From Pseudolysinimonas sp. (GTDB lineage Bacteria > Actinomycetota > Actinomycetes > Actinomycetales > Microbacteriaceae), in the NCBI GenBank assembly GCA_035554115.1, contig DATMIW010000070.1, positions 18,742 to 82,741 of the forward strand: a stretch of DNA of 64,000 nucleotides. Direction: 5' to 3'. Each line of letters opens with the position of its first letter. The stretch's first letter is position 1. A model generated the notes under the pieces. That model searched no databases. It was not told the origin of the DNA and saw only the letters and a list, made by a program, of their open reading frames with translations. A program made the translations under genes and the position numbers. Shown here piece by piece: positions 2,773 to 62,713 of the stretch.

Positions 2773-2794
2773 CGTACCCGAGAGGACACACCCG

Positions 2795-18604: not shown

Positions 18605-19813
18605 GTGTCCGACCACTTCGCCGCCGGCGTTCCTGCTGCGCCCGCTCCGGTGCCACCGCCTTCGGCGCCCCTCGCACCTCCGCCACCCGCGCCTGTCGGC
18701 GCGCCCCTTCCCGGCCCCGAGCCTGTGCCTTCGATGGCCGAGCCTGCACCGCCGATAGCTGCACCTCCGATGGCCGAGCCTGCACCCCCGGTGGTCGAGC
18801 CTGTCGAGACCCCCGCAACTCTCCTGAATGTCATAACCGACGCAGAACTCGAGCGCGCCCGAGGAATCGTGGCGCGTATGTCCCATGCCTTCGCCCGCAA
18901 AGTTGTCGGCCAAGAACGGCTCCGCACGAGCATCATGGCGACACTGATCGCCGGCGGCCACATTCTGCTTGAGTCGGTTCCCGGTCTTGCGAAGTCGACG
19001 GCAGCCCACACCCTCGCGGATGCGGTCGAAGCGAACTTTCGCCGCATCCAGTGCACCCCTGACCTGCTGCCGAGTGACATCATCGGCACGCAGATCTACG
19101 ACCCGTCGAAGGTCGGCTTTACGACACAACTCGGGCCTGTTCACGCGAACATCGTCCTGCTCGACGAAATCAACCGCTCGAGCGCCAAGACCCAAAGCGC
19201 CATGCTCGAGGCGATGCAGGAGCGCCAGACCTCAATCGGCGGCACGGTGTATCGGCTGCCCGAGCCGTTCCTGGTCATCGCGACGCAAAACCCGATCGAG
19301 CAGGAAGGCACCTACCTGCTGCCCGAGGCGCAACTCGACCGCTTTCTGCTCAAAGAGGTTCTCGACTACCCCTCGGCGGCAGATGAGCTCGAAATCTTGC
19401 AGCGCATCGACTCCGGAATTTTCGACCCCGACGCTGTCGCTCCTGTTGGGCTTAGCCTCGACGACGTTCGTTTCCTGCAGGAGGCCGCCAAACGCGTCTT
19501 CGTGGAAGATTCGGTGCGCGCCTATCTTGTCGCCATCGTGCAGGCCACTCGCACCCCGAAGGGTCTTATTCCTGACGATCTTGCCCGTCTTGTCGAATAC
19601 GGGGCCAGCCCGCGCGCCAGCATCGCGTTCATCGCGGCAGCCCGCGCGGTCGCGCTGTTGGAAGGACGTTCCTTCGTTGTGCCGGAGGACATCAAGAACC
19701 TTGCCCATCGGGTGCTTCGTCATCGGGTCGTGTTGAGTTTCGAGGCTGATGCTCTCGAGATCTCGTCCGAGCGGGTCATCGACGCGATCATCACCGCCGT
19801 TCCCACTCCGTAG
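18605..19813 (+). CDS. MoxR-family AAA+ ATPase (module 2) with Pro/Ala-rich N-terminal extension
   Basis: 'ESVPGLAKST' P-loop, 'IVLLDEINRSSAKTQSAMLEAMQE' and 'ASPRASIAFIAAARAVALLEGRSFVVPEDIK'. The first ~75 aa are Pro/Ala-rich ('AEPAPP' repeats). Confidence 0.9.
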   Translation: MSDHFAAGVPAAPAPVPPPSAPLAPPPPAPVGAPLPGPEPVPSMAEPAPPIAAPPMAEPAPPVVEPVETPATLLNVITDAELERARGIVARMSHAFARKVVGQERLRTSIMATLIAGGHILLESVPGLAKSTAAHTLADAVEANFRRIQCTPDLLPSDIIGTQIYDPSKVGFTTQLGPVHANIVLLDEINRSSAKTQSAMLEAMQERQTSIGGTVYRLPEPFLVIATQNPIEQEGTYLLPEAQLDRFLLKEVLDYPSAADELEILQRIDSGIFDPDAVAPVGLSLDDVRFLQEAAKRVFVEDSVRAYLVAIVQATRTPKGLIPDDLARLVEYGASPRASIAFIAAARAVALLEGRSFVVPEDIKNLAHRVLRHRVVLSFEADALEISSERVIDAIITAVPTP

Positions 19814-19830
19814 ACGGCCTGAGCCTCGCT

Positions 19831-20718
19831 ATGGTCGCGCTTCTCCCGCGGGTCAAGTCGCGCCTGTTCATTCATGCGAACAGGCGCTCCACGAACCTGC
19901 TCGAAGGGGAGTACGCCGCGATCACCTCAGGCCGCAGTCTCGACTTCGACGACCTCCGCGAGTATGTGCCGGGCGATGAGGTCGACGACATTGATTGGAA
20001 GGCGACGGCACGTGTCGGGTCGCCCCTGGTAAAGCGCTACAAGCAGACGCGACGCCAAGATGTTGTGCTCGCCGTCGACACGGGTCGCGGCATGGCGGCA
20101 CTCGCCGAGAACGGTGAACCCAAGCGCGAGCTGGCGATTTCGGTGGCCGGCTCCCTCGGCTATCTGGCGCTGCGACACGGGGATGCCGTGGGCCTCGTGA
20201 CAGGAGCAGGTACCCGCCTGCATCGCCGCCCCGCCCGCGCGAGCGAGGGGTACCTCGAGACCCTACTGCGTACGGTGCAGGCCGATACGACCCTCGAATC
20301 CGAGTCGAGTGACCAGTTCGAGCTGGTCAGTTACCTTGTCCGAGCCGTGCCGAATCGCAGCATTGTCGTCATCATCGGCGACGATATCGAGCCGGACCCG
20401 CTGATCGACGAGGCGCTGCGCGCGCTCCGCATCCGGCATGAACTGCTCTGGATTACCGTGGCCGACCTCGATCTCGTTGCAGGAGACGGGAGTCGCCGCA
20501 CCATTCTCGACGTCGACGACAACAGCCCGATTCCGAAGATTCTGCGTACCGATAAGAAACTCGCGGCGATCTATGCCGATCGCACAGATACCCGCATAGC
20601 CGCACAGCACGCATACTTCCGCGCGCGAGGCGTATCGCACTGTCGCGTCACCTCGAGCGAGGCAGTGGTGCCGACGCTTTTGGACCTCTTGCAGAGGCGG
20701 CGCCGTGCGGGTTTCTGA
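19831..20718 (+). CDS. DUF58 domain-containing protein (module 2)
   Basis: 'SLDFDDLREYVPGDEVDDIDWKATARVGSPLVKRY' DUF58 hallmark, followed by a vWA-like body. Confidence 0.85.
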   Translation: MVALLPRVKSRLFIHANRRSTNLLEGEYAAITSGRSLDFDDLREYVPGDEVDDIDWKATARVGSPLVKRYKQTRRQDVVLAVDTGRGMAALAENGEPKRELAISVAGSLGYLALRHGDAVGLVTGAGTRLHRRPARASEGYLETLLRTVQADTTLESESSDQFELVSYLVRAVPNRSIVVIIGDDIEPDPLIDEALRALRIRHELLWITVADLDLVAGDGSRRTILDVDDNSPIPKILRTDKKLAAIYADRTDTRIAAQHAYFRARGVSHCRVTSSEAVVPTLLDLLQRRRRAGF

Positions 20719-21262
20719 TCTTGTGAATGCGGCAACCTCTCCGCCAGCTCCGCAGCCCACCTCAGGGCCGAGTTTCACCCCCGACCCCAACGTCGATCCC
20801 TTGATGCCGCCGGTGAATTATGACTGGCCGTGGTGGATTGTCCTGCCCGTGTTCCTCCTACTGCTGGTGGCGTGGTTCCTGCTGAGCAGACGCCTCGCTC
20901 GGCGCCGACGTCGCGATGATGTTGCGACCCCCAGTGCGCCGAAAGCTCCTCTTCCTTTGCCGATCGATGTGCGGCGCAAAGCCTGGTCGCGCATCGACGA
21001 CATTGAGCGCCGCACTGTCGCCGGCGAACTGAGCGCGCGTGACGCTCATATTGAGCTGAGCGGCGTGCTGCGAGAATTGGCGTTCTTCACCTCCAGTCAC
21101 GATGCGCGGAAGATGAATCTCGACGAACTGCGGGCCGCGGGGATGCATGATCTGGCGAATATCGTCGGCAGCTTCTACCCCGTTGCCTTCGCGGCACCCG
21201 AGGCCAATGACGCCCGAGCGGCGATCGTCACGGCACGTCAGGCGGTGACGCGGTGGAGCTAG
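20705..21262 (+). CDS. Small single-pass membrane protein, DUF4381-like (Bat-operon accessory)
   Basis: 'PPVNYDWPWWIVLPVFLLLLVAWFLL' then 'RRRRRDD', the pattern found between DUF58 and BatA-like genes. The start is uncertain; ATG 20804 is an alternative. Confidence 0.5.
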   Translation: MRVSDLVNAATSPPAPQPTSGPSFTPDPNVDPLMPPVNYDWPWWIVLPVFLLLLVAWFLLSRRLARRRRRDDVATPSAPKAPLPLPIDVRRKAWSRIDDIERRTVAGELSARDAHIELSGVLRELAFFTSSHDARKMNLDELRAAGMHDLANIVGSFYPVAFAAPEANDARAAIVTARQAVTRWS

Positions 21263-22269
21263 TCTTCGTCTGGTTGCCGCTCGTGTTGGCGGCGTTCCTG
21301 GTCGCACTCCTGGCCGTCTTCGTGTTCTTGCGCCGAAAGCGCACGCGCGCCGACGCTGACACCGTGGCGGCGGCGCACACCGACAGGTTCCTGCGCCTTC
21401 CCGAATATCGCAGGGTGTATCGCAGGGTGATCCTGCAAAGCAGCGCCATGTTCGTTCTCGCGGTGGTGTCCCTGGGCGCGTTCGCCGTCGTTGCGGCCCG
21501 TCCCATAACTACCGATGTCGCCGACACCGAACGGGTGTCACGCGACATCGTTTTGTGCCTCGACGTTTCGGGCTCGATGACGTCGACCGACGCCAAGATC
21601 ATCGACAGATTCCAGGAACTCGTCAGACAGTTCCAGGGCGAGCGGATTGCGCTTGTCGTCTGGGACAGCTCCGCCGCTCAGGTTTTCCCGCTCACCGATG
21701 ACTACCCCTATGTTCAGCAGGAACTCGCCGCGATCGGCGACGACACCGGGGTCGATATCGGCGACCTCGGTGATCTCTTCGGGGGCGGTGGCGAAAGCAA
21801 AGTGCCGCTGTATGCCGGTACCGGACTCGGTGAGGGCTCGTCGCTGATTGGCGACGGCCTGGCGTCGTGCGTGCTGCGCTTCGACATCCCCGAGCTCGAC
21901 AGGTCGCGCACGGTCATCCTGGCCACCGACAATCAGCTGGCGGGTACGCCTCTCATCGGTCTCGACAAGGCGGTGGACTTCGCGATCGAGCAGAAGGTGC
22001 GGGTATACGGGATCGCTCCCGGTGGCCTGCTTGCGGGTCCCGAATTGGACGAGTTGGAGGCAGAAACCAAGCGAACAGGTGGCGATCTGTTCAGCCTCGG
22101 TGATGTGGACGGCGGTCAGAGCATCGTGGATAAGGTGCTCGATGACCAGGCGACGGCTCTCAACGGTGTTCCCGAGCTGATCATTACCGATCACCCGGGT
22201 TTCCCATTCGTTGTCGGGGTGTTGGCCCTGTGGTCGGTCGTCTTCGTCGGATGGCGGTTGCGATCATGA
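21253..22269 (+). CDS. vWA domain membrane protein, BatA-like
   Basis: N-terminal TM helices, MIDAS 'LCLDVSGSMTS', and a C-terminal TM helix 'FVVGVLALWSVVFVGW'. Confidence 0.8.
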   Translation: MELVFVWLPLVLAAFLVALLAVFVFLRRKRTRADADTVAAAHTDRFLRLPEYRRVYRRVILQSSAMFVLAVVSLGAFAVVAARPITTDVADTERVSRDIVLCLDVSGSMTSTDAKIIDRFQELVRQFQGERIALVVWDSSAAQVFPLTDDYPYVQQELAAIGDDTGVDIGDLGDLFGGGGESKVPLYAGTGLGEGSSLIGDGLASCVLRFDIPELDRSRTVILATDNQLAGTPLIGLDKAVDFAIEQKVRVYGIAPGGLLAGPELDELEAETKRTGGDLFSLGDVDGGQSIVDKVLDDQATALNGVPELIITDHPGFPFVVGVLALWSVVFVGWRLRS

Positions 22270-23327
22270 CCTTCGAGCCCCTTTTCGACCTGTGGACGAT
22301 CGTCTTCCTGCTGGTCCCGCCCGCTGTCATCCTCGGCATCCAGATTTTTCGGGGTCGAAAGGATCGGCGCGGCTGGGTGGCACCCGTGCGCCGTGGCGTT
22401 GTGCTGCTACTGCTTCTTGCGACGGCCGTCGGTCCAGCAATTCCCGGCGCCCTCACGAAAGTTGTTGTGTCAGACATCGACATCTTTCTGGTGATGGATA
22501 CGACGACCAGTTCAAACGCAGAAGACTATGGCGCCGAAGGAGGCACTCGCCTCGACGCAATGCGTGCCGATGCCCTGCGGGTGAGCAAGGCATACGCTGG
22601 CGCCCGGTACTCGATCATCAGTTTCGACAACGGTTCGCTGGTGCGCATGCCACTTGTTGCCGACCCGATCGCCCTCCGGTCGGCACTGGCCTCCCTCGAG
22701 ATCGAGGTGACCGGGCGATCCGGGGGTTCGAGCATTGGCGAAGCTCGCGACCTCCTGCGGGCCCGGCTTGAGGCGTCGGCGAAGGCCCATCCGGAGCGCT
22801 TGCGGCTCGTGTTCTACTTCGGTGATGGTGAGCAGACGCGCGACAGCCCTCCGGAGTCATTCAGTGACGTGAAGTCGCTGGTGTCTGCGGGTGCGGTGTT
22901 CGGGTACGGCACGGCAAGCGGTGGACCCATGCGCGAGAACGATTTCGCGCACTACGGCTACTACGGCAATGGCTTTGATGACGGCGGCGAAGCGCCCGAA
23001 CAGGAACCGCCGCCGTACGTTCGCGATACGAGCAAACCCGGGAGTCCGCGGGCAATTTCCCGAATCGACGAGAACAATTTGAAGACCGTCGCACGCGAGC
23101 TGGGGGTTGGCTATCAGCATCGCAGGCCCGGATCCGAGCCCACCTTCCCCGATGTGTCCGACCAAATCGGCGAGGAAATTCTCGTACCCGATGTCGAGGT
23201 AGCCGCCCGGCTCTACTGGATTCCGATGATCGCGGCGTTCCTGCTGCTCAGTTGGGATCTAGTCGTTGCCGGTCGTCACGTCAGTGAGCTGCGCGCATCC
23301 CGTCCCCGGAAGGCGGGGGCGCGATGA
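22266..23327 (+). CDS. vWA domain membrane protein, BatB-like (variant MIDAS)
   Basis: TM helices at both ends and a vWA body with 'LVMDTTTSS' (DxTxS instead of DxSxS). I chose ATG 22266 for its ATGA overlap with the upstream stop; the ORF track opens at 22230. Confidence 0.7.
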   Translation: MTFEPLFDLWTIVFLLVPPAVILGIQIFRGRKDRRGWVAPVRRGVVLLLLLATAVGPAIPGALTKVVVSDIDIFLVMDTTTSSNAEDYGAEGGTRLDAMRADALRVSKAYAGARYSIISFDNGSLVRMPLVADPIALRSALASLEIEVTGRSGGSSIGEARDLLRARLEASAKAHPERLRLVFYFGDGEQTRDSPPESFSDVKSLVSAGAVFGYGTASGGPMRENDFAHYGYYGNGFDDGGEAPEQEPPPYVRDTSKPGSPRAISRIDENNLKTVARELGVGYQHRRPGSEPTFPDVSDQIGEEILVPDVEVAARLYWIPMIAAFLLLSWDLVVAGRHVSELRASRPRKAGAR

Positions 23328-25952: not shown

Positions 25953-26025
25953 GCTCGCGCATGAAGCGGGGCGCGGGATGTGGAGAGCTCGGGCAGGCGG
26001 GCAGCAAGCCCGTGAGAGTGGGGGC

Positions 26026-26949
26026 ATGCCGCGCCTTGTTCCACTTCCTCTCGCCGCGCACCAGCCGTTTCGCACAGCCGAGCATGCGAACTGGGGCATC
26101 GGGCGCGGGAGACTTCGCTCTCCAGATGTGGCCCATCCCTTCCATGGGATCAACACCGCGGGTGGTGTACCCACCTCCGTTCGAGAGTTGGCAATGGCAT
26201 GTGCACCATTGCTTCGCGACGGTGACGCCTTCAGTCACACGACCGCGGCGCTGCTGTTCGGTGCCGAGTTGCCTGAGGTCCACGAGCGCGAGAGCCAGGT
26301 GCATATCACCTCGATCGGCGGACTCGATCGATTTCGTCGCCGTGGAGTGCGGGGCCACCGAGCAACTGAAGTGCCGCCGTTAGTGCTGGTTGGCGTCCTC
26401 CCGGTCGTCGCCCCGGCTTATGTGTGGTTTCAGCTCGCGTCCGTTCTGTCGGTATGGGATCTCGTAGCGGTAGGGGACAGGTGGACAACTCCCCGACGCC
26501 GGGGATCGACTCGCCGACCTCCGCTCGTCCGGCCGGAGGAACTCGTGCACGCCGTCGTGGCTCACGCCGGTCAGAGGGGAGCTGTTCGTGCGCGCGAAGC
26601 TCTGCGACTAGTCCGAGCGGGGGCCGAGTCCCGGATGGAGACTCACTTGCGGTTGCTCCTAGCCGAGGCTGGTCTACCTGAGCCCCTCCTGAACCCAGGT
26701 CTTCGAGTGAGGGGCGAGACCCTGCATCCGGATCTCTTCTTTGATCGATGGCGCGTGGTGCTCGAGTATGAAGGGGACGGGCATCGCACGGACCCTCGGC
26801 AGTGGCGTCAGGACATCTGGCGCCGTGAAGCATTCGAAGAGGCGGGTTACCGGGTAGTTCGGGTGCATCGTGACGACCTACTGGCTGAGCCGCAGGCATT
26901 CCTGGCACGAGTTCGCCGCATCCTCGCTCAGCGTGAGGGGCGAGCGTGA
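26026..26949 (+). CDS. DUF559 / Vsr-like endonuclease-domain protein
   Basis: C-terminal 'ETHLRLLLAEAGLPEPLLN...HPDLFFDRWRVVLEYEGDGHRTDPRQWRQDIWRREAFEEAGYRVVRV', typical of actinobacterial DUF559 proteins. ATG 26026 follows 'GAGAGTGGGGG'; the ORF track opens at 25978. Confidence 0.75.
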   Translation: MPRLVPLPLAAHQPFRTAEHANWGIGRGRLRSPDVAHPFHGINTAGGVPTSVRELAMACAPLLRDGDAFSHTTAALLFGAELPEVHERESQVHITSIGGLDRFRRRGVRGHRATEVPPLVLVGVLPVVAPAYVWFQLASVLSVWDLVAVGDRWTTPRRRGSTRRPPLVRPEELVHAVVAHAGQRGAVRAREALRLVRAGAESRMETHLRLLLAEAGLPEPLLNPGLRVRGETLHPDLFFDRWRVVLEYEGDGHRTDPRQWRQDIWRREAFEEAGYRVVRVHRDDLLAEPQAFLARVRRILAQREGRA

Positions 26950-51087: not shown

Positions 51088-51636
51088 TCAGCGTGACGAG
51101 TTCACAGTGCGTCCCCGCACGATCCCGACAAAGGTCTCGATGCGGTCATCGCTGATGTCTGCGCGCCAGGCGAGCCCAATGCCCGTATCGGGCGCGTCGA
51201 CAATTGGGCGAGCGACGAGGTCTTTGCGCGAATGAGCGCGAGCTACCGACTGCGGCAAAATCGCGTATCCCACTCCCGCCGCCAAGAGTTCCAAAGTTCC
51301 GGAGATGTGGGTGTCATCGAGAAGCTCCTGACGTGGCTCGTCGAGCCCGTCCAGGTCACTGCATGTGATCGAGTCGAGAGACGCTAAGAGCGATTCACGA
51401 GATGTGACCACAACCGGGGTTTCGCGATACAGGGGAATGACGTTGAGCTCGTCTGTCGCGTCGACATCCCGCAGGAATGCCATATGAGCCGAGCCGGCGA
51501 GGACGCCGCTCAGCGCGTCATCATTCGAGGCAGCTCGGATGTCGAGCGGGCGACGTCGCATCCGCTCGTTCCACATGCGCGTCCATTTGCCCGGCGTCAC
51601 GCCCGTGACAAACAACACGACGAACGCATCCTCCAT
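51088..51636 (-). CDS. Stand-alone LysR-type substrate-binding domain protein (no HTH)
   Basis: 182 aa with a type-2 periplasmic-binding fold pattern ('FVVLFVTGVTPGKW', 'PLYRETPVVVTS', 'LLAAGVGYAILPQSVA'). Only 50 bp separate its start from the divergent gene, so there is no room for an HTH. Confidence 0.65.
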   Translation of the reverse strand: MEDAFVVLFVTGVTPGKWTRMWNERMRRRPLDIRAASNDDALSGVLAGSAHMAFLRDVDATDELNVIPLYRETPVVVTSRESLLASLDSITCSDLDGLDEPRQELLDDTHISGTLELLAAGVGYAILPQSVARAHSRKDLVARPIVDAPDTGIGLAWRADISDDRIETFVGIVRGRTVNSSR

Positions 51637-51686
51637 GGGCCCAGGCTAGTGCGAGGGGATCGAAGGCCGACGACTAGCCTGGTGCA

Positions 51687-52088
51687 ATGAGCGACGAGCG
51701 CCCCGATACCCGCCAGCAGCCGAAACCCCGTGCACCCCAGCTGCTGAGCCCCGCCACCGCCGCGAAAAAGTTGAACGTGTATCTGCCCGCGACACCCGAG
51801 GAGTTCCGGGCGAACCCGATAAGCCGCGACGAGCTGAACGCGATGCAAGCCAGTCCGCCAGAATGGCTTGCCACTCTTCGACGCGAGGGCCCGCATCCGC
51901 GCAATGAGGTATCGCGCCGTCTCGGCATTTCCAATTCGGCGCTCGTACGCGGTGGTGTCAGCGACACGATGACGACAGCCGAGATCGGCGAGCTTCTGGA
52001 TGAGATGCCGGCCTGGTTGGTCGCCGAGCGTCAGTCCGCTGCGGCCTCCGTGACGGCCCCGCAGCAGGCGGCCCCCGACGAGAGGTAG
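51687..52088 (+). CDS. Hypothetical 133-aa protein with two HTH-like repeats (possibly the actinobacterial DUF5997 family; name uncertain)
   Basis: Two related ~45-aa segments end in 'PPEWLATLRRE' and 'MPAWLVAERQS'; 'VSRRLGISNSALVRGG' is HTH-like. The gene ends 15 nt upstream of the DarT-like gene. Confidence 0.6.
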   Translation: MSDERPDTRQQPKPRAPQLLSPATAAKKLNVYLPATPEEFRANPISRDELNAMQASPPEWLATLRREGPHPRNEVSRRLGISNSALVRGGVSDTMTTAEIGELLDEMPAWLVAERQSAAASVTAPQQAAPDER

Positions 52089-52103
52089 CCTGGGAGTGGT
52101 GTC

Positions 52104-52913
52104 GTGCGTTCTCGACGCCGCGAGAGGAACTTCCCAGTGGCAGACGAGTGCATCCACGGCTTCGAAGCGGGGCTGTGCGACAGCTGCTATCCCCGGCAGG
52201 CAAAGGAGCCGGCAATTGCGGTTGTGGCTCCTGGCAGCCGTCGGAACGCCGCACCAAAAAGGGTTCCCGGTGCCCGTAGTGCTGCCAACGCTCCTGCCGC
52301 CGTTGCGCAATATGTCTTTGCGCAGCAGCGGCTGTATCACGTCACCCACCTGCAGAACCTCGCGGGGATCATCGCCGATGAGGTCATCCGGGCAGACGCT
52401 GTGCCCGCCGTCGACGTCAGCGCACCCCTGACGCGCGAACTGCGTGCGTCGACCGAAGTGGCATCCGGAGACCCTGTTTCGCACCACGTCCCGTTCTTCC
52501 TGTCGCCCGACGCGTCGCGCTGGGACGAGCTGCGCACGGGCGCGCTTGGCGCGCATTGGTCGGACGAGGCTCGGGCTTCGAGCCCCCTCGATTTTGTGAT
52601 CTTGGTGACCGAAGCCGGTAACTTGGGGCCCGACTCGGTCCTGAGCGACGGCGATGCGGCAGCTCCCAGCACTCGATTCGCTGTCGGTGCCGATGGGGCT
52701 GCGCCCTTCCTGCGTCGCGTGCGCGGAGACGACCCCGACTTTCTCGAGCCAGAGGTGCTGGCACCGGCTGCCGTGCCGTTCGACGTCATCTCGCTGATCG
52801 GTGTGGCCAACGACAGGGTGCGGGATCAGGTGAAGGCTCTTCTGCGCCCGCGCGGCGACGCCGCCCCCAAGGTCGCGGTCTACCCCCCGTGGTTCCAGCC
52901 GACCGGTAGTTAG
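52104..52913 (+). CDS. DarT-like (DUF4433) ADP-ribosyltransferase domain protein with N-terminal Cys/His motif
   Basis: 'LYHVTHLQNLAGII', 'HHVPFFLSPDASRW', 'VLSDGDAAAPSTRF' and 'EPEVLAPAAVPFDVISLIGV' match, as I recall them, the conserved DarT/DUF4433 blocks, including the catalytic-Glu strand. The N-terminus carries 'CIHGFEAGLCDSC'. The start is uncertain (GTG 52104 or GTG 52137 after GAGAGGAA). Confidence 0.7.
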   Translation: MRSRRRERNFPVADECIHGFEAGLCDSCYPRQAKEPAIAVVAPGSRRNAAPKRVPGARSAANAPAAVAQYVFAQQRLYHVTHLQNLAGIIADEVIRADAVPAVDVSAPLTRELRASTEVASGDPVSHHVPFFLSPDASRWDELRTGALGAHWSDEARASSPLDFVILVTEAGNLGPDSVLSDGDAAAPSTRFAVGADGAAPFLRRVRGDDPDFLEPEVLAPAAVPFDVISLIGVANDRVRDQVKALLRPRGDAAPKVAVYPPWFQPTGS

Positions 52914-53868: not shown

Positions 53869-54636
53869 CTAGTTGGCGCGGTAGGACTGCGTCAGAGTGT
53901 CGTTTGCTCCCAGGTTTGCCAATACCTGGACGCGGAGGCCGTCAGGTCGCACGGCGTCGCAGGTCACATCCGCTCCCACCGAAGCATCGTCGAGGATAGG
54001 CGGGCAGGAGACGGAGCTCAGGCGCCCTGTGTCGACAAGCCGCTCGTTCAGTGTGGACTGCACAAAGTAGGCCTTCGTGACCGGGGCAGCTGCTCCGCTT
54101 GCGAGAAGACCAGCAACACCACCGCCGAGCACAACAGCGATCGCCAGAAAGACCACGAGAAGCGTGTTTCCTGTTACCGCAAGTCGGCGTGCGATGAGGT
54201 AGGGAAGGGCACCGAGGAGGCTCCACAGCGCACGCGGTGAGCGGAATCCGCGGTGACGCAGGATCCGTGCATCGAGTACCGCAGCAGCCACGACCACCGC
54301 ATAGAGCACGACGAGAATCGCGATCGCGGCGGGGGCAGATGCGGCGTACAGGAAGAGGTAGGCGGCGAGAGCACCGAGAACGAACAACAGGGCCGGCGTG
54401 ATCGCGAGGAACCACCCAGTAAATGTTCCTGAGACAACCGGCACATAGGTGCTGGTCGCGATGCTTTCAGTTGTCGGCTTCGGTTCTGTGTGGTCCGTCC
54501 ACGTTGCCCCGTTCCACCAGCGAACGAGGTCGGCAGAAGCCGGGTCTTCGTACCAGCCGGCAGAGACGACACGCGTTGCCTGAGCCTGTGCTTGATCGGT
54601 CACGTGTCTCTCCCCCCATTGGGTCCTGAGCACCAT
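53869..54636 (-). CDS. DUF2510 domain membrane protein (paralog A)
   Basis: 'AGWYEDPASADLVRWWNGATWTDHT', four TM helices, and a Cys-containing extracytoplasmic tail ('SVSCPPILDDASVGADVTCDAV'). Confidence 0.75.
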   Translation of the reverse strand: MVLRTQWGERHVTDQAQAQATRVVSAGWYEDPASADLVRWWNGATWTDHTEPKPTTESIATSTYVPVVSGTFTGWFLAITPALLFVLGALAAYLFLYAASAPAAIAILVVLYAVVVAAAVLDARILRHRGFRSPRALWSLLGALPYLIARRLAVTGNTLLVVFLAIAVVLGGGVAGLLASGAAAPVTKAYFVQSTLNERLVDTGRLSSVSCPPILDDASVGADVTCDAVRPDGLRVQVLANLGANDTLTQSYRAN

Positions 54637-54711: not shown

Positions 54712-56004
54712 CTAGTTGGCCATCGACATGATGCCCCAGTCTTCCACTCGCCACTCGATCCAGCCGTTGGCGCGCTGAAGACTTACCGTGACGTTGAAGA
54801 ATTCGCCGCCACTGTCGACAGCAGTGCACTGGAAGCTCGATCCGATGAGCTGCGGGGGAACCGCGGGACATTCGACCTTGAGGTTTGCGCCAAGGCTGAT
54901 TGCGTCTTGTTCAATAGATTGCTCGGCTGCCGTCGAGAAGGTGCTCGGAGACATAGCAATAACAAGGCCGGGTACAGCGACAAGCGAACCGACGGTAAGC
55001 AGGCCGAAAGCACCCCAGGTGAGCAGCGGCCCGAACCCACGACCCGTTTCACGCACGACGGAAGCGAGTCGCGTGATGAGGTAGACCGGCGCGGTAAGGA
55101 ACGACCAGGCCCAGTGCGCGGTGTGCTGGAATCCGTGGCGCTTGAGGGTCTGGCGATCGATTATCGCGAGACCGACAGTTGCCAAATAGGGAAGCACCAC
55201 AATGAGGGCGATGAATATCGGGGATGCGCTGCCGGCCATACCTGAAAGCAGGAAGAGCAGCCCGAGCACGAGAATCAGCAACGGCATGAGGGCAATAACC
55301 CAGACCGGCCCAGTGGTCGCGCGCGGGGTGAAGTCGGGAATACTGGTGTGCGTCGCCTGGCGCCGCTCGTAGTCGGCTCGGAACTGGTCCTCGGGCACAA
55401 AGTGCGCCGAGGATTCCCCCACGTAAGAGAAAGCGGGACGAGGCATGGCGGTCTCTGCGGCCGTCTCACCGAGCAGGTCGTCGAAACGGTTGTCGAGCAG
55501 GAACGGCATGCTCGTGGGAGCGTCCTCGACGTACGTCGTTTCGGCCAGACGCTCTGCAGGCGAAGGTTCGTCGATGGTGATCTCTTCGCGCACGGGTGCT
55601 TCAAGCGATAGCAGCGGGTCGCCGAAGAGGGGCTGGCTATCAACCCGCGCCGTGCCCGCCGCACCCTGCTGCAGGATGATCGGCGCGTCGGTTTCGGTCT
55701 CGAGCCGTTCCCGCTCGCGTCGCTCACGCCGTGTCAGCGCGTCGTCGCCCAGAGAGTCATCGATGACGTAGAGGCGGTCATCGGCAAAGTCTTCGTCATC
55801 ATCAGCGAATGCCAAGCGGGGTATTACGGTCTCTGTCGCCACCATCGGCTGGCGTGCGTCCGATGTGTGTTCCGTCCACGAGTGGTTGTCCCACCAGCGA
55901 AGCTGGGGAAGGCCCAGCGGATCCGGATACCAACCTGCCGGCACGCGCACGTCATTGTCTACCAACGAACGCTCCTCAATACATGGTCCCCCGGTGCGAA
56001 TCAC
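54712..56004 (-). CDS. DUF2510 domain membrane protein (paralog B)
   Basis: 'PAGWYPDPLGLPQLRWWDNHSWTEHT', an acidic linker, four TM helices and a tail 'KVECPAVPPQLIGSSFQCTAV'. The start is uncertain (GTG 56004, or TTG 55965 after GAGGAG). Confidence 0.7.
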   Translation of the reverse strand: MIRTGGPCIEERSLVDNDVRVPAGWYPDPLGLPQLRWWDNHSWTEHTSDARQPMVATETVIPRLAFADDDEDFADDRLYVIDDSLGDDALTRRERRERERLETETDAPIILQQGAAGTARVDSQPLFGDPLLSLEAPVREEITIDEPSPAERLAETTYVEDAPTSMPFLLDNRFDDLLGETAAETAMPRPAFSYVGESSAHFVPEDQFRADYERRQATHTSIPDFTPRATTGPVWVIALMPLLILVLGLLFLLSGMAGSASPIFIALIVVLPYLATVGLAIIDRQTLKRHGFQHTAHWAWSFLTAPVYLITRLASVVRETGRGFGPLLTWGAFGLLTVGSLVAVPGLVIAMSPSTFSTAAEQSIEQDAISLGANLKVECPAVPPQLIGSSFQCTAVDSGGEFFNVTVSLQRANGWIEWRVEDWGIMSMAN

Positions 56005-56103: not shown

Positions 56104-58629
56104 GTGCAGACTCATCCAGTGCTGCACGACGGACTTCCTGCCCCGTGGGACCCGGATCTCTTCGTCGTCGCCTTTGATGAATGGGTTCGCTCGCGAGGAA
56201 TGGTTCTCTATCCTGCGCAGGAAGAGGCGGTCCTCGACCTCGCCCTGGGATCCCATGTTGTGGTGTCGACTCCGACCGGCAGCGGAAAATCACTGATCGG
56301 AATCGCCGCTCACGCCGCTTCTCTCGCGCAGAACTCGCGCAGCTGGTATACGGCTCCGATCAAGGCTCTCGTCAGCGAAAAGTTCTTCGCCCTAGTCGAC
56401 ATCTTCGGGGCCGAAAACGTGGGTATGGTCACCGGGGATTCTCGTGTGAACCCCGACGCACCGATTATCTGTTGCACGGCAGAGATCCTGGCCAACTTTG
56501 CGTTGCGGCACGGTTCTGAGGCCGATGTCGGCACGGTCATCATGGATGAGTTCCACTACTACTCGGACCCGGATCGTGGCTGGGCCTGGCAGGTGCCGCT
56601 TCTGCTCATGTCGCGGGCACGGTTCGTGCTCATGTCGGCGACTCTGGGTGATGTTGACGCGCTTGCGGCGGATCTTGAGCGTCGCACGGGCCGAGAGGTG
56701 GCACGGATCACGGGCGTGGATCGCCCGGTGCCGCTGCATTTTCGTTGGTCGATGACCCCGATTCACGAGACCGTGCAGAACATCTTGACCGAGGGACTCG
56801 CTCCCATATACATCGTGCACTTCTCGCAGGCAGCCGCAGTTGAGAAGGCCCAGGCTTTGTCGAGCCTCAACATCGCAACGCGTGAGCAGCGCGATGCGAT
56901 CGCCGCGGCGATCGGTGATTTCAGGTTTTCCGTCGGATTCGGCGCCACCTTGTCGCGCCTGATTCGTGCGGGAATCGGGGTGCACCATGCGGGGATGCTG
57001 CCGAAGTACCGACGTCTGGTCGAAACCTTGGCGCAGCAGGGGCTGTTGAAAGTCATTTGCGGAACCGACACCCTCGGGGTCGGAATCAACGTTCCGATCC
57101 GGACTGTACTTCTCACCGGGCTGACCAAATTCGATGGAACACGGATGCGCCAGTTGACGGCGCGCGAATTCCACCAGGTGGCGGGACGTGCCGGTCGCGC
57201 CGGGTACGACATAGCCGGTGACGTCGTCGCTCAGGCGCCCGAGCATGAGATCGAAAACGCACGAGGCGCCGCCAAGGCCGGAATTGATCCCAAAGCCAAG
57301 AAGAAGCTGGTGAAGAAGCGGGCGCCCGAGGGGTTCGTCTCGTGGGGTGAGCCTAGTTTTCAGCGGCTCATAGCGGCACAACCCGAAACGCTGGCTTCGT
57401 CAATGCGAATAAGCGCGGCGATGATGATCGGGCTGATCAGCAGGCCAGGAGCCGAGATTCGTGCCGATCAGTCCGGTAGCGCGTTCGCCATCGTTCGCGA
57501 GTTGATATTTGACAGCCACGAATCACCGGCCCGCAAGCGAGCTTTAGCGAGGAGGGCGCTCGGCATCTATCGCACGCTGAGGGCGGGGGAGGTCGTCGTG
57601 CAGCACGGGGGAGGCTTCGATGGCTCCGCACGCAGTGAACTCGCGGTGGATCTTTCGGAGGACTTCGCGCTCAACCAACCTCTCTCTCCGTTTGCCCTCG
57701 CCTCATTCGACCTGCTCGATCGGGATGCCCCGAGCTATCCGCTCGACATGATCTCGGTTGTCGAGTCGACTCTCGACGATCCGCGCCCGGTGCTCAGCCA
57801 GCAGCAATTCCGTGCGCGTGGCGAAGCAGTCGCGGCGATGAAGGCCGAGGGTATCGAGTACGACGAACGGATGGAGCTGCTCGAGGCGATCACCTGGCCG
57901 AAGCCCCTCAACGATCTGCTCGAGCAGTCATTTGCTGTCTTTGCAACGTCACAGCCGTGGGTGCGGGATTTCGAGCTGAGTCCCAAATCGGTCGTACGAG
58001 ATATGTACGAGCGCGCCATGACCTTCAGTGAATACATCGCCTACTACCAATTGGCTCGTAGCGAAGGTCTCGTGCTGCGCTACCTGTCCGACGCCTATCG
58101 AGCTGCTCGACAGACAATTCCGGATACGGCGAAGACTGACGAGCTGCGGGATCTCATCGAGTGGCTCGGTGAGCTGGTGCGTCAGGTGGATTCGTCACTG
58201 CTCGACGAATGGGAAGCGCTAACGCACCCGTCAGAGGATTCCGCGGCGACGGCCGTGATCCGACCGCCCACCTCAGTTGTGACCAACCGACGCGCGTTCC
58301 TGGTGCTCGTCCGTAATGCGCTATGGCGCCGCGTCGACCTTGTTGCGCGCCAGCGCGACGAGGAACTGATCGCGCTTGATCCGGATGTCGATTGGTCGTC
58401 GGCGCTCGACGACTACTTCGCGGATCACGACAGCGTGAGTGTTGACGCTGATGCACGCAGCAACGCCCGACTGATCATCGACGAGAAACCGGATCGCTGG
58501 GAGGTGCGGCAGGTGCTCGCCGATCCCGCCGGTGATCACGACTGGGGTATTCGCGCTGTGGTGGATCTCGTCGAATCAGCCGAGCTGGGGTTCGCGGTCG
58601 TACGTGTCGTCGGCCTCGACCGACTCTGA
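56104..58629 (+). CDS. Ski2-like DEAD/DEAH-box helicase with DUF3516-type C-terminal region
   Basis: 'VVSTPTGSGKSLIG', 'VIMDEFHYYSD', 'GIGVHHAGMLPKYR', 'GTDTLGVGINVP' and 'QVAGRAGRAGYD'. I chose GTG 56104; the ORF-track start at 55867 would overlap the divergent DUF2510 gene. Confidence 0.85.
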   Translation: MQTHPVLHDGLPAPWDPDLFVVAFDEWVRSRGMVLYPAQEEAVLDLALGSHVVVSTPTGSGKSLIGIAAHAASLAQNSRSWYTAPIKALVSEKFFALVDIFGAENVGMVTGDSRVNPDAPIICCTAEILANFALRHGSEADVGTVIMDEFHYYSDPDRGWAWQVPLLLMSRARFVLMSATLGDVDALAADLERRTGREVARITGVDRPVPLHFRWSMTPIHETVQNILTEGLAPIYIVHFSQAAAVEKAQALSSLNIATREQRDAIAAAIGDFRFSVGFGATLSRLIRAGIGVHHAGMLPKYRRLVETLAQQGLLKVICGTDTLGVGINVPIRTVLLTGLTKFDGTRMRQLTAREFHQVAGRAGRAGYDIAGDVVAQAPEHEIENARGAAKAGIDPKAKKKLVKKRAPEGFVSWGEPSFQRLIAAQPETLASSMRISAAMMIGLISRPGAEIRADQSGSAFAIVRELIFDSHESPARKRALARRALGIYRTLRAGEVVVQHGGGFDGSARSELAVDLSEDFALNQPLSPFALASFDLLDRDAPSYPLDMISVVESTLDDPRPVLSQQQFRARGEAVAAMKAEGIEYDERMELLEAITWPKPLNDLLEQSFAVFATSQPWVRDFELSPKSVVRDMYERAMTFSEYIAYYQLARSEGLVLRYLSDAYRAARQTIPDTAKTDELRDLIEWLGELVRQVDSSLLDEWEALTHPSEDSAATAVIRPPTSVVTNRRAFLVLVRNALWRRVDLVARQRDEELIALDPDVDWSSALDDYFADHDSVSVDADARSNARLIIDEKPDRWEVRQVLADPAGDHDWGIRAVVDLVESAELGFAVVRVVGLDRL

Positions 58630-59048: not shown

Positions 59049-59342
59049 ATGTCTGTTGTTCTGCATGCCACCTGGACCGTTACTCCGGGTCGTGAGCACA
59101 TCGTGCGGGAGGCGCTTGCCTCCCTGGCTCCAGCGACTCGCGAGGAGCCCGGCTGCCTCTTCTTCCAGCCATATGTCGATCCGGCTGAGCCGAATGTGAT
59201 CCGCATCTTCGAGGTCTACCTTGATCAGGATGCGGTAACTGCCCACGCCGAATCGGCCCATTTCGCGCAGTGGGCCCTTGGCGTCGCGATCCCCGAACTC
59301 ATCGACCGCCGTCGGGAGTTCTTCGAGACTCTCGACGTCTAG
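59049..59342 (+). CDS. Antibiotic-biosynthesis-monooxygenase (ABM) domain protein
   Basis: 97-aa ferredoxin-like ABM pattern: 'EPGCLFFQPYVDPAEPNVIRIFEVYLDQDAVTAHAESAHF'. Confidence 0.8.
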   Translation: MSVVLHATWTVTPGREHIVREALASLAPATREEPGCLFFQPYVDPAEPNVIRIFEVYLDQDAVTAHAESAHFAQWALGVAIPELIDRRREFFETLDV

Positions 59343-61798
59343 CGAGACTCCCACCGCACCTCGTCGGGGCGGACATCGTTTCGCCATCCGCGCCAGACCG
59401 GATGCCGCAACCGGCCGTCTCCGGTCGCCTCGCCATATTCCACTTCGGCCACCATCGTCGGCGACACCCAATGTGCGTCGCGCGCATCGACTGTGGGAAC
59501 CCCTCTCACCGAGCTTCTGTCGCTGGAGATCCTGTCGAGTCGGGCGCGCAGGGCCTGCAACTCGCCGTCGCTGAAACCGCTGCCGACTCGGCCCACATAG
59601 CGCACGCCATCTCCATCGGGAACGCCGAGCAGAAGTGAACCGATGGAGTCTGAGCGGTGGCCTTTTCCGGGTCGCCAGCCCACCACGATCACGTCCTGCG
59701 TCTGTGTGTGCTTGATCTTGATCCAGTCGCGGCTGCGCTTGCCTTCGCGGTAGGGGCTTGAGCGGCGTTTAGCCATAATCCCCTCAAGGCCCAATTCGCG
59801 GCTTGTCGCGATGGCCGCGGTCAGCTCGGTACCGAGCTCCGGGGGCACCACGATCGTGCGGGTCTCGTGGACGGCACCCACGAGGCGCTCCCTACGGACG
59901 CTGTATGGCTCGGATGTCAGTGTGCCGCCGCCGAGTGACAGTACGTCGAAGAGGTAAAGCGCAACGGGGGCGGCCAATTGACCACGCGCAATATCGCGGG
60001 GGGTCGTCAATCCCGAACGTCGTTGAATGAGTTCGAAGCTGGGCCGCCTGTTTTCGTCGAGCGCGACGATCTCGCCGTCAAAGACGCCTGTCCCTTCGAC
60101 GGCGTCGGCGAGCTCGGCAAGTTCCGGAAAGGTCGGAGTGAGATCCAGCCCGTTGCGGGAGCGAAGCTCGACAGTGCGCGAGCCAGCCGTTTCGGTGACA
60201 GTCGCGATCGCGCGGTAGCCGTCCCATTTCATTTCATAGGCCCAGTCGTCCCCGCCCGTGAAGTCGGCCGGATCCCCGAGCGTTGCGAGCATCGGGCGCA
60301 CGGTGCCGGCCCCTCCGGTCCTCGTCCCCACAACGGTCTTCCCGTTTCGCCGCACAGGCGCAGCAGGGGCGGCGGCGCGCGCGCCAGGCCCGGATGACCA
60401 CACACCTTTGCGCTGATCCTTCATGCGGTGCATGAGCCAGTTCTCTTTCGCAGCGCCGCCGACGCTGTCCGACGTCGTTCGAATCAGCGCCAGACGATGC
60501 GAGCCGTGCTTCTCACCGTGAATGATGACAACGACCTCGTGATCGCTGAACTTCTCCTCTTCATATATGCCGCGGTCCCAGATCGTGACGGTGCCGGCGC
60601 CGTATTCTCCGCGCGGGATCGTGCCCTCGAACTGTCCGTATTCGAGCGGGTGATCTTCGACATGGACGGCAAGATGATTCGCATCGTCGAGGGGGATGCC
60701 TTTGGGGACTGCCCAGCTCACCAGAACGCCGTCCCTCTCGAGCCGGAAGTCGTAGTGCAGTCTGCGCGCGTGGTGCTCCTGAATCACAAAAGTCGGTTGC
60801 CGGCGCGGATCGGCATTCGGGGGCTTGTCGCCCATGGGTTCCGGGGTCTTGGCCGAGTCGCGCTTCGACCGGTAGGAGCCCAGAGCCTCATTATGGTGAC
60901 CCGTTCGGTGGCTCGCCGAGAGGTCGGCGAGCAGGTCTCCCTTCTTCTCGACGCGCTTCAGCACATCTGTGAACTCGAGATGGGTGAGTGAAGGGGATGC
61001 GAGCTCGCGCCAGGTGCGCGGGGCAGCGACCGTGGGACGAATTCGCCCCCGCAAGGAGTAGGGCACGATTGTGGTCTTCGCTGCGTTGTTCTGACTCCAG
61101 TCGACAAGAACTTTGCCGCCGCGGATCGATTTCTTCATATCGCTGACCACGAGGTCAGGGTGATCGGCCTCGAGAGACCGCGCGAGTTCATGGGCGACCG
61201 CTGACACTTCATCGCTTGTCTGTCGGCCGTCGAGGGCCGCATAGAGGTGAATGCCCTTGCTGCCACTCGTGACGGGCAGCGGGTTGAGTCCCATGCCGGA
61301 AAGGATTGCGCGCACGAGGCGGGCCACTTCGGCGCATTCCGCCAGGCCCGCCCCTTCGCCTGGGTCCAGGTCGAGCACCATGCGATCGGGGTTCTGCCGC
61401 GCGCCTCCCGGGCCGAATCGCCACTGAGGAACGTGGATTTCGAGGGCAGCCTGTTGGGCAATCCAGACCAGGGTTGCCAGATCGTTGACGAGCGGGTAGA
61501 CGTTCACGTGATCCGAGTGCTGGATTTCGCGACGGGCGATCCACTCGGGCGCGGAGGCTGGCACGTTCTTTTCAAAAAACACCGGGCCGGGGTCTGCCGC
61601 TGTCCCTGTGCCGCTGACCCACCGCTTGCGGGTCGCGGCCCGATCGCGCGCGTGCGGAATCAACACATCGGAAACGCGCGAGTAGTAGTCGAGGACCTCG
61701 CCTTTGGTCGTTCCCGTCTCGGGGTAGATCACCTTGTCGAGATTGGTGAGACGTAGTCGCCGCCCGCCGACCTCCACGAACGTTTCGGTTCCGGCCAT
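59339..61798 (-). CDS. ligD: Multidomain ATP-dependent DNA ligase D (polymerase/primase - phosphoesterase - ligase)
   Basis: N-terminal 'LRLTNLDKVIYPETGTTKGEVLDYY' (Pol), middle 'PTFVIQEHHARRLHYDFRLE' (PE), and C-terminal 'YEMKWDGYRA' (adenylation KxDG). Confidence 0.93.
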   Translation of the reverse strand: MAGTETFVEVGGRRLRLTNLDKVIYPETGTTKGEVLDYYSRVSDVLIPHARDRAATRKRWVSGTGTAADPGPVFFEKNVPASAPEWIARREIQHSDHVNVYPLVNDLATLVWIAQQAALEIHVPQWRFGPGGARQNPDRMVLDLDPGEGAGLAECAEVARLVRAILSGMGLNPLPVTSGSKGIHLYAALDGRQTSDEVSAVAHELARSLEADHPDLVVSDMKKSIRGGKVLVDWSQNNAAKTTIVPYSLRGRIRPTVAAPRTWRELASPSLTHLEFTDVLKRVEKKGDLLADLSASHRTGHHNEALGSYRSKRDSAKTPEPMGDKPPNADPRRQPTFVIQEHHARRLHYDFRLERDGVLVSWAVPKGIPLDDANHLAVHVEDHPLEYGQFEGTIPRGEYGAGTVTIWDRGIYEEEKFSDHEVVVIIHGEKHGSHRLALIRTTSDSVGGAAKENWLMHRMKDQRKGVWSSGPGARAAAPAAPVRRNGKTVVGTRTGGAGTVRPMLATLGDPADFTGGDDWAYEMKWDGYRAIATVTETAGSRTVELRSRNGLDLTPTFPELAELADAVEGTGVFDGEIVALDENRRPSFELIQRRSGLTTPRDIARGQLAAPVALYLFDVLSLGGGTLTSEPYSVRRERLVGAVHETRTIVVPPELGTELTAAIATSRELGLEGIMAKRRSSPYREGKRSRDWIKIKHTQTQDVIVVGWRPGKGHRSDSIGSLLLGVPDGDGVRYVGRVGSGFSDGELQALRARLDRISSDRSSVRGVPTVDARDAHWVSPTMVAEVEYGEATGDGRLRHPVWRGWRNDVRPDEVRWESR

Positions 61799-61873: not shown

Positions 61874-62713
61874 ATGCGCTCGATCTGGAAAGGCTCGCTG
61901 AGTTTCGGTCTCGTCAACGTGCCGGTGAAACTGTTCTCGGCAACCGAAGACCACGACGTTCCTTTGCACCAGGTCCATGACAAAGATGGCGGACGGATCC
62001 GGTACAAGCGGGTGTGTGAGATCGACGGTGAGACAGTCGACTTTGAGCACATTCAGAAGGCATATGTGGATGGCGAGCAGACCGTGGTGTTGACCGAGAA
62101 GGACTTCGCAGCGCTGCCGGCCGAGCGCAGCAAGGACATCGATGTCGTGGAGTTCGTCCCCACCGAACAGGTCGATCCGATCATGTTTGAAAAGAGCTAC
62201 TTTGTCGCACCGGACTCGAAGTCGACGAAGGCCTATGTGCTGCTGATGCGCACACTTGACGAGAGCGACCGCACCGCGATCGTGCAGTTCGCTCTGCGTC
62301 AGAAGACACGATTGGCGGCGCTGCGCGTGCGAGACGGGGTGCTCGTCATGCAGACCCTGCTGTGGGATGACGAGGTGCGTGAGGCCCGATTCCCCGAACT
62401 CGACGAGTTGCCGACGATCTCGGCGGCGGAGTTGAAAATGTCGCGTCAACTGGTCGAGAGCTTCTCGAGCGATTTCACGCCGGAGAAATTTACCGACGAC
62501 TATCAAGAGCAGCTGCGAACCCTGGTTGAGGCGAAGCTCGAGCAGGGTGACGCGCTCGACACGGAGGCGACCTTCGGGCGCGAGACCGAGGGAGGCGGGG
62601 AGGTTCTCGACCTTATGGAGGCGCTTCGGCGATCCGTTGAATCTCAGCGCGGAGGGACAGCCAAGAAGGCGCCCGCCAAGAAAAAGGCACCCCCCAAAAA
62701 GAAGTCCGCCTAA
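61874..62713 (+). CDS. ku: Non-homologous end-joining protein Ku
   Basis: 'MRSIWKGSLSFGLVNVPVKLFSATE' with a Lys-rich tail 'KKAPAKKKAPPKKKSA'. The gene is divergent from ligD across a 75-bp gap. Confidence 0.93.
   Translation: MRSIWKGSLSFGLVNVPVKLFSATEDHDVPLHQVHDKDGGRIRYKRVCEIDGETVDFEHIQKAYVDGEQTVVLTEKDFAALPAERSKDIDVVEFVPTEQVDPIMFEKSYFVAPDSKSTKAYVLLMRTLDESDRTAIVQFALRQKTRLAALRVRDGVLVMQTLLWDDEVREARFPELDELPTISAAELKMSRQLVESFSSDFTPEKFTDDYQEQLRTLVEAKLEQGDALDTEATFGRETEGGGEVLDLMEALRRSVESQRGGTAKKAPAKKKAPPKKKSA

Follow-up and report, generated by a model that had tools for sequence, protein, structure and literature searches.

We analyzed a 64,000-nucleotide stretch of DNA from Pseudolysinimonas sp. 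(contig DATMIW010000070.1), hereafter the window, in which a gene for a DarT-like ADP-ribosyltransferase lies directly downstream of a small gene of the DUF5997 family. A sequence-only reading had proposed these two genes as a toxin and its partner. Both open reading frames (ORFs) are where that reading placed them, at 51687-52088 (133 aa) and 52104-52913 (269 aa), each on the + strand, and the upstream product is a DUF5997 member (PF19460, 153 bits). The 269-aa ORF is the longest frame of the DarT-like gene; three observations place the start within it. The N-termini of homologues begin 1-3 residues ahead of the motif E-C-I-H-G, an identical NCBI protein from Pseudolysinimonas sp. (P0001, annotated as 'DarT ssDNA thymidine ADP-ribosyltransferase family protein') is called at 258 aa, and a Shine-Dalgarno-like GAGAGGAA (52122-52129, +) lies 7 nt ahead of a GTG at 52137, with the same motif at the same place in Frigoribacterium loci. 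We therefore take the coding sequence as 52137..52913 (+, 258 aa). It follows that the distance to the DUF5997 gene is 48 nt, not the 15 nt given before, while the co-orientation of the two genes stands. The N-terminal extension, put at about 70 aa, is shortened to about 66 aa, and its Cys/His motif exists as described and does not vary within the family. Residue numbering throughout refers to the 269-aa ORF and not to the 258-aa NCBI product.

The protein has three parts. At its N-terminus is a putative zinc-binding mini-module, the Cys/His knuckle E15-C16-I17-H18-G19-x5-C25-D26-x-C28-x-P30 (52146..52193, +), and the C-x-H-x6-C-x2-C pattern reported earlier is indeed at 52149-52187. This is followed by a variable, Pro/Ala/Arg-rich linker that is predicted to be disordered (residues 31-77, 52194..52334, +) and by the DarT catalytic domain of ADP-ribosyltransferase (ART) fold (residues 78-264, 52335..52895, +), supported by Pfam, the AlphaFold2 (AF2) model, Foldseek and residue mapping. 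The four blocks quoted from this domain in the sequence-only reading were all found: YHVTHLQNLAGII (residues 78-90), HVPFFLSPD (128-136), SDGDAA (181-186) and PEVLAPAAVPFDVISLIGV (216-234). Key codons on the + strand are those of H79 (52338-40), R114 (52443-45), D184 (52653-55) and E217 (52752-54), with T81, N85, R111, F131/F132 and R139 as further key residues.

The assignment to DarT was borne out by profile and structure alike. Residues 78-264 match Pfam PF14487 (DarT/DUF4433) at 47.1 bits, where the gathering cut-off is 22.5, and the match spans positions 1-200 of the 201 in the profile; the DarT model of PADLOC scores 54.5 bits. An AF2 model built from 16 family members has a core with a predicted local distance difference test (pLDDT) value above 90, and it recovers the DarT2 fold. 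In Foldseek searches of the PDB the top matches to this model were all DarT structures, namely M. tuberculosis (Mtb) DarT (7yk3; E 5e-14, TM-score (TMt) 0.70) and Thermus DarT (TMt 0.72-0.76; 0.75-0.76 for 7omy/7omv), followed by a weaker match to E. coli DarT1 (E 3.5e-5, TMt 0.54). When a family profile was run against PDB sequences, it found Mtb DarT (7e-10) and Thermus DarT (1.6e-9) and did not detect DarT1. Judged by sequence and predicted structure, then, the product is a DarT2-like member of the DarT family with the ART/DarT fold.

To see how the active site is kept, functional positions were mapped across 187 family sequences, with residue roles taken from published work (PMC9967889, PMC11543638). 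The catalytic Glu of the E-x-L strand, already singled out by the sequence-only reading, is E217 (E-V-L, 52752-52754); it aligns with E160 of Thermus DarT and is Glu in 187/187. Positions equivalent to H13 and T15 are H79 (His in 186/187) and T81 (Thr in 187/187), and the N19 equivalent, N85, is Asn in 166 sequences and Thr in the other 21. An Arg pair occupies the catalytic-Arg site at the R50/R53 equivalents, R111 (186/187) and R114 (187/187), where the alignment around the catalytic Arg itself (R51) is ambiguous by one residue. The substrate side is different. The position that contacts the base, His119 in Thermus DarT2, Asn104 in DarT1 and, by alignment, Asn in Mtb DarT, is an Asp (D184) in 185/187. 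The Met78 position (Met71 in DarT1) is Arg in 130/187 (R139 here) and is followed by an invariant Trp. At the position of Tyr71, which stacks on the nicotinamide, this protein has Phe, and the family has mainly Tyr (61), Phe (31), Ser (31), Gln (27), Ala (14) or Thr (14); the stacking aromatics of DarT1 are reported to be dispensable for catalysis (PMC11543638). The alignment thus points to an intact catalytic Arg/Glu core beside a substrate-side pocket that is remodelled and strongly conserved in its remodelled form.

The knuckle motif, E-C-I-H-G-x5-C-D-x-C-x-P, is invariant in both family alignments. The four invariant putative ligands, C16, H18, C25 and C28, suggest that it binds zinc. In the AF2 model the knuckle has a pLDDT of about 75 and the linker 43-63, and the linker varies in both sequence and length among homologues. 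No counterpart of the knuckle was found in Pfam or the PDB, and a knuckle-only profile searched against 1.84 billion representative proteins retrieved 103 proteins, mostly full-length relatives. By its sequence, the knuckle seems to be an undescribed portable mini-module. Tandem copies occur in unrelated proteins, six in P0169, three in P0220 and two in P0211, a 114-aa protein. The tandem form reads 'DWCxEHGxPESxCxxCNP' in the proteins with six and three copies, and these two proteins are apparently secreted or membrane-associated.

Relatives of the gene were sought in one genome per species. At least 360 species genomes carry one, and 80 loci were retrieved. In a neighbor-joining tree Frigoribacterium (14/14), Curtobacterium (16/16) and Lacisediminihabitans (3/3) are each monophyletic, Protaetiibacter clusters together with Homoserinibacter, Salinibacterium does so with Rhodoglobus, and the class of synteny tracks the clade. 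The GC content of the gene is the same as that of its surroundings, and tblastn against 72,556 plasmids and 50,697 phages returned no match to the protein. Because the tree follows genera, synteny is stable, GC is unremarkable and plasmid or phage copies were not found, the gene is vertically inherited on the chromosome in Microbacteriaceae, and it does not bear the marks of a mobile toxin-antitoxin or defence module.

A neighbor survey of the 80 loci, using conservation-driven gene calls followed by clustering of the neighbors, found no gene family that is conserved beside the DarT-like gene. Immediate neighbors depend on the genus. Frigoribacterium and Curtobacterium share the context fusA-tuf-(TopIB)-[gene]-rpsJ-rplC-rplD, where TopIB is a bacterial topoisomerase IB, and Salinibacterium and Rhodoglobus share LysR-like/DUF5997-(GAF protein)-[gene]-(Eis-like GNAT). 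In Protaetiibacter the context is (M28 peptidase)-[gene], and in Pseudolysinimonas-like metagenome-assembled genomes the gene is accompanied by NUDIX/HNH or by SDR/HTH/acyl-CoA ligase genes, HTH being a helix-turn-helix.

Three types of DarT antitoxin are known, namely macrodomain, NADAR and the ARH-type DarG3 (PMC11543638, PMC13069673). None of the three was present in the 64-kb window in precomputed Pfam assignments of the called genes of the public contigs, and a Pfam scan of those ORFs between 15.5 and 33.6 kb that could not be recognized by eye did not turn up a macrodomain, NADAR or ARH either. Searching all six-frame ORFs of the window and 88 loci by phmmer with YmdB, YbiA, TARG1 and YegU gave no match, at the sensitivity of single-sequence queries. 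The earlier remark that no DarG- or NADAR-type neighbor is visible therefore survives a more formal search by Pfam and phmmer.

Just upstream of the DarT-like gene, whatever the neighboring gene, nearly all loci carry a conserved element with the consensus GACGTAnCnTnGA, which contains a -10-like hexamer of the form TANNNT. In the window it is GAGGTAGCCTGGGA (52082-52095, +; matrix score 11.8), overlapping the stop codon of DUF5997 and including a -10-like TAGCCT at 52086-52091 (+). A weight matrix of the element found 60 (+3) matches upstream of DarT-like genes and 14 in the remaining 1.9 Mb, both strands counted, an enrichment that is only qualitative since the matrix was trained on the counted regions and many of the loci are related. 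Even so, an ordinary -10 box should turn up at numerous further promoters, and GACGTAnCnTnGA is regarded as private to this gene. The element stands 6-8 nt from the start codon in Protaetiibacter and a number of others, suggesting a leaderless mRNA, and in Frigoribacterium, Curtobacterium and the window it is followed by a leader of 40-60 nt with a Shine-Dalgarno sequence. The leader RNA of the window folds no better than shuffled sequences (z = -0.29), and inspection by eye upstream of GACGTAnCnTnGA showed no consistent -35 box. From its sequence and placement, GACGTAnCnTnGA, or GAGGTAGCCTGGGA in the window, is a probable promoter element. Where TopIB lies directly upstream of the DarT-like gene (28 of the 80 loci, in Frigoribacterium and Curtobacterium; for example L007, L015, L018-L028 and L033-L039, at about 4900-6000), the two genes are about 90-125 nt apart, and this interval holds the conserved element together with a leader hairpin that has a different sequence in each genus.

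The matches to the knuckle profile include a second class, short forms of 135-175 aa. Retained in these catalytically dead derivatives are the knuckle and the first beta-alpha unit, then a central 'VVLV' strand and, at the C-terminus, the '...VANEPARxRV...VAVYPPWF' unit; the H-x-T-H motif, the helix with the Arg, the V-P-F strand and both SDGDAA and the E-x-L strand are missing. They fall into about 80 clusters, every one of which comes from Microbacteriaceae or Micrococcales metagenome genomes and consists of unnamed hypothetical proteins. There was no convincing Pfam match; of six tested, a single one gave a C-terminal DarT fragment, at a marginal 22.7 bits. Five short forms were located in their genomic context (L084:97-579, L085:989-1471, L086:6001-6483, L087:6001-6447 and L088:6001-6456). 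Those of L085-L087 are convergent with a GNAT and His_Phos_1 pair, the relation to His_Phos_1 being the same as in the window, and in L086 and L087 dinB is close upstream. In L088 the short form and the end of mfd have 4 nt in common. The sequence upstream of the short form in L084 resembles this mfd end, and its 33-aa upstream fragment is without annotation. The extended element GACGTAnCnTnGA is absent ahead of the short forms.

Taken together, these results lead us to put about even confidence in the view that the gene encodes a solo, vertically inherited enzyme derived from DarT2, one that has been domesticated and regulated, is predicted to be active with altered specificity and does not belong to a toxin-antitoxin pair. 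The sequence-only reading had mentioned a domesticated or regulated ART as its alternative, and it is this alternative that the solitary gene, its vertical inheritance and its own upstream element favor. On this account the full-length protein would be an active cytoplasmic NAD+-dependent ADP-ribosyltransferase, and its likely target would be a base in single-stranded nucleic acid, as for DarT2. Target recognition would be expected to differ from that of the thymine- and guanine-specific DarTs, given the Asp at the base contact and mostly Arg at the Met site. Self-harm might be avoided by tight, gene-specific transcription from GACGTAnCnTnGA, by a knuckle-linker that serves in targeting or autoinhibition, or by both. 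Removal of the modification could be left to unlinked hydrolases or to DNA repair. SCO6735/TARG1-type macrodomains, erasers of thymidine-ADP-ribose, are reported to be widespread in Actinobacteria and to have a DNA-damage promoter (PMC9411070). A more specific version is tentative, and we think it rather unlikely to hold in full: an eraser-less nucleic-acid enzyme, core to Microbacteriaceae, with a new base or sequence specificity, aimed or gated by the zinc knuckle, switched on by a dedicated factor at GACGTAnCnTnGA and having a physiological role in replication, repair or transcription control instead of a toxic one, for which the short forms, some of them coupled to mfd, would act as readers or decoys.

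Several points weigh against the solo-enzyme account. The score for the NCBIfam toxin_DarT equivalog NF048013, 38.2 bits, is far under its cut-off of 150. The Met and the His/Asn base contact that are reported as essential in DarT1 and DarT2 are replaced here, and in roughly half of the family the stacking Tyr position is Ser, Gln, Ala or Thr. With these changes, the NAD+/substrate site may work differently or not at all, and the register around the catalytic Arg adds its ambiguity. Since short forms without the core are retained, the knuckle and C-terminal parts can evidently be enough, by some function other than catalysis. The eraser searches covered the window and the retrieved loci, and a dedicated hydrolase may be encoded at an unlinked site. 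The bias in the counts behind the upstream element belongs here too.

Of the readings that compete with a solo enzyme, the two-gene module proposed by the sequence-only reading, with DUF5997 as antitoxin or dedicated regulator, has appearances on its side in the window, where the two genes are close together in one orientation with no terminator between them. DUF5997 also looks like a tandem HTH-type protein. The duplicated HTH-like modules described earlier are consistent with our structure model, which has two tandem helical repeats; a search with the whole fold gave no significant match. In 24 of the 80 loci DUF5997 is upstream of the DarT-like gene within 6 kb and in the same orientation. 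It is directly upstream in only two of them, however (L054 and L068), and it is not found within 6 kb in 56, the closest relatives (L001-L012) included. Adjacency is thus not conserved; the stable companion of DUF5997 is an HTH-less LysR_substrate-like gene, divergently paired with it in 23 of the 24 loci. Conservation is also unequal, with DUF5997 at 64-79% identity among its top 120 matches and holding 56 invariant columns, unlike typical antitoxins, and the DarT-like protein at 43-63% among the non-self matches listed. Rapid-growing mycobacteria have DUF5997 as a signature domain (PMC10551460), whereas this DarT clade was seen only in Microbacteriaceae/Micrococcales-like taxa and in no mycobacteria. 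Finally, the DarT-like gene has a promoter-like element of its own, placed across the DUF5997 stop codon. We consider the pair very improbable, and DUF5997 appears to be only a syntenic neighbor of the DarT-like gene and no functional partner.

The remaining alternatives accept the gene as solitary and differ in what its product does. It is unlikely, in our estimate, that the protein is a pseudo-enzyme in which the ART fold is a scaffold for NAD+/ADP-ribose, DNA or protein and the function resides in the zinc knuckle and the C-terminal beta-alpha-beta unit. The substitutions at the Met and base-contact positions and the variable Tyr71 position would fit such a protein, as would the persistence of core-less short forms in about 80 clusters, some of them at the His_Phos_1 site or behind mfd. 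However, the NAD-ribose contacts, both Arg and the Glu are kept in 186-187 of 187 sequences and the Asp in 185, which is hard to explain without catalysis, and the presence of the upstream element at full-length genes but not at short forms suggests that the two are handled differently. An active ART whose target is a protein, or else a small molecule (an antibiotic or a metabolite, for instance), would also account for the loss of the DarT1/DarT2 base-recognition residues. ART folds can switch substrate class, the rifampin ARTs of Actinobacteria being an example. Against this, the closest relatives by both sequence and fold are all DarTs that modify single-stranded DNA, and the genomic contexts lean, through weak links, to DNA transactions (TopIB in 28 loci, mfd, dinB), so we regard a non-nucleic-acid substrate as quite unlikely. 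More doubtful still is a single-gene anti-phage or abortive-infection effector that stays silent until infection and needs no antitoxin. DarT systems do defend against phages (PMC11543638, PMC13069673). The PADLOC DarT model matches, and the N-terminal module together with a dedicated promoter element could provide the triggering. Yet the gene does not lie in a defence island but among housekeeping genes (tuf/rpsJ, His_Phos, GNAT, peptidases). A sporadic, mobile distribution is the norm for defence genes, whereas here the phylogeny follows taxonomy, the position is stable within genera and no copies were found on plasmids or phages.

Other features of the window were recorded alongside. Upstream of DUF5997, a 182-aa LysR_substrate-only protein is encoded at 51088-51636 (-), separated from it by the intergenic stretch 51637-51686. 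The start codons of both genes lie 6 nt past -10-like boxes arranged as mirror images (ACTAGCCTGG). Together the boxes make up an imperfect inverted repeat of 17 nt, and their 6-nt distance from the start codons suggests two leaderless divergent transcripts. The LysR-like/DUF5997 pair may be a 'split' LysR-type regulator with DUF5997 as its DNA-binding half. A repeat, TAGCCTGG, has four copies in the window against 0.56 expected. It was considered as an operator shared by DUF5997 and the DarT-like gene and was rejected: the two copies at DUF5997 are these -10 boxes, and they score -3.7 with the DarT matrix.

Downstream of the DarT-like gene, two adjoining DUF2510 membrane proteins (53869-54636, -, and 54712-56004, -) keep their synteny with the His_Phos_1 gene across many of the related loci. 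A DEAD/DUF3516 helicase follows 3.3 kb downstream (about 56200-58629, +), and LigD (primase-polymerase and ligase; 59339-61798, -) and Ku (61874-62713, +) of non-homologous end joining lie 6.5 kb downstream; the proximity of LigD, Ku and the helicase is probably coincidental, though it has a flavor of DNA transactions. Two MoxR-AAA/DUF58 clusters are present at 1-7493 and 18605-23327. One of them has a TgpA-type transglutaminase and is preceded by a giant Cadherin/Big_9/fn3 surface protein, and the other has apparent VWA proteins, recognized by eye, with DUF4381 slightly under its cut-off. An FtsK/SpoIIIE-like ATPase is encoded at 8405-11263, and an ORF between proS and nusA (25978-26949, +) has weak, sub-threshold similarity to DUF559 / REase_MTES_1575, a very-short-patch-repair-like endonuclease.

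To our knowledge, all characterized DarT enzymes are restrained by an adjacent eraser, be it a macrodomain, NADAR or ARH, and they have been studied as toxins or phage-defence effectors. In the literature searched we found no antitoxin-less DarT clade, knuckle fusion or vertical inheritance of a DarT, nor an Asp as base reader, an upstream element private to the gene or degenerate short-form orthologues. The family assignment itself is not new, since the protein already carries a DarT-family label in databases. If the solo-enzyme account is true, the clade is a natural test of whether ADP-ribosylation of DNA (or RNA) serves as an ordinary regulatory modification, and of how a dangerous enzyme is tamed without an antitoxin. 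The DUF5997 case also cautions that toxin/antitoxin pairs should not be inferred from adjacency in a single genome.

Among known systems, DarT1 of DarTG1 (E. coli C7, PDB 8baq), which is guanine-specific and has a NADAR antitoxin, shares the ART fold and the essential Glu and Arg. It is the more distant relative by Foldseek, the gene studied here has no NADAR neighbor, and the equivalent of Asn104 is Asp. DarHTG, a DarT with a UvrD-like helicase and the ARH-type DarG3, demonstrates that DarT modules can have non-canonical partners (PMC13069673), but it is a three-gene defence operon of E. coli with an ARH antitoxin, and neither an ARH-like nor a helicase gene is linked to the DarT-like gene here. 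Stand-alone macrodomains of the SCO6735/TARG1 type (PMC9411070) could plausibly act in trans as the counterpart of a solo writer; the window encodes none, and there is none less than 6 kb away from the gene in the 80 genomes. The closest likeness is to DarT2 of DarTG2 (Thermus sp. 2.9 / T. aquaticus and Mtb Rv0059; PDB 7omv-7on0 and 7yk3), with which the product shares PF14487, the fold (TMt 0.70-0.76), the H-x-T...N NAD-ribose site, the catalytic Arg region and the E-x-L Glu. It differs from DarT2 in lacking an adjoining macrodomain DarG, in the changes of His119 to Asp and Met78 to Arg, and in the added knuckle and linker. Compared with a canonical DarT2 toxin, the gene is also under the NF048013 cut-off, lone, vertically inherited and equipped with its own upstream element. 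Mtb DarT shares the 'SDG-x-AA' form of the loop and, like this gene, is chromosomal, with a physiological role in controlling replication and stationary-phase transcription (PMC12170906). It is the nearest functional precedent for the enzyme proposed here, yet one that still needs its DarG (PMC12170906).

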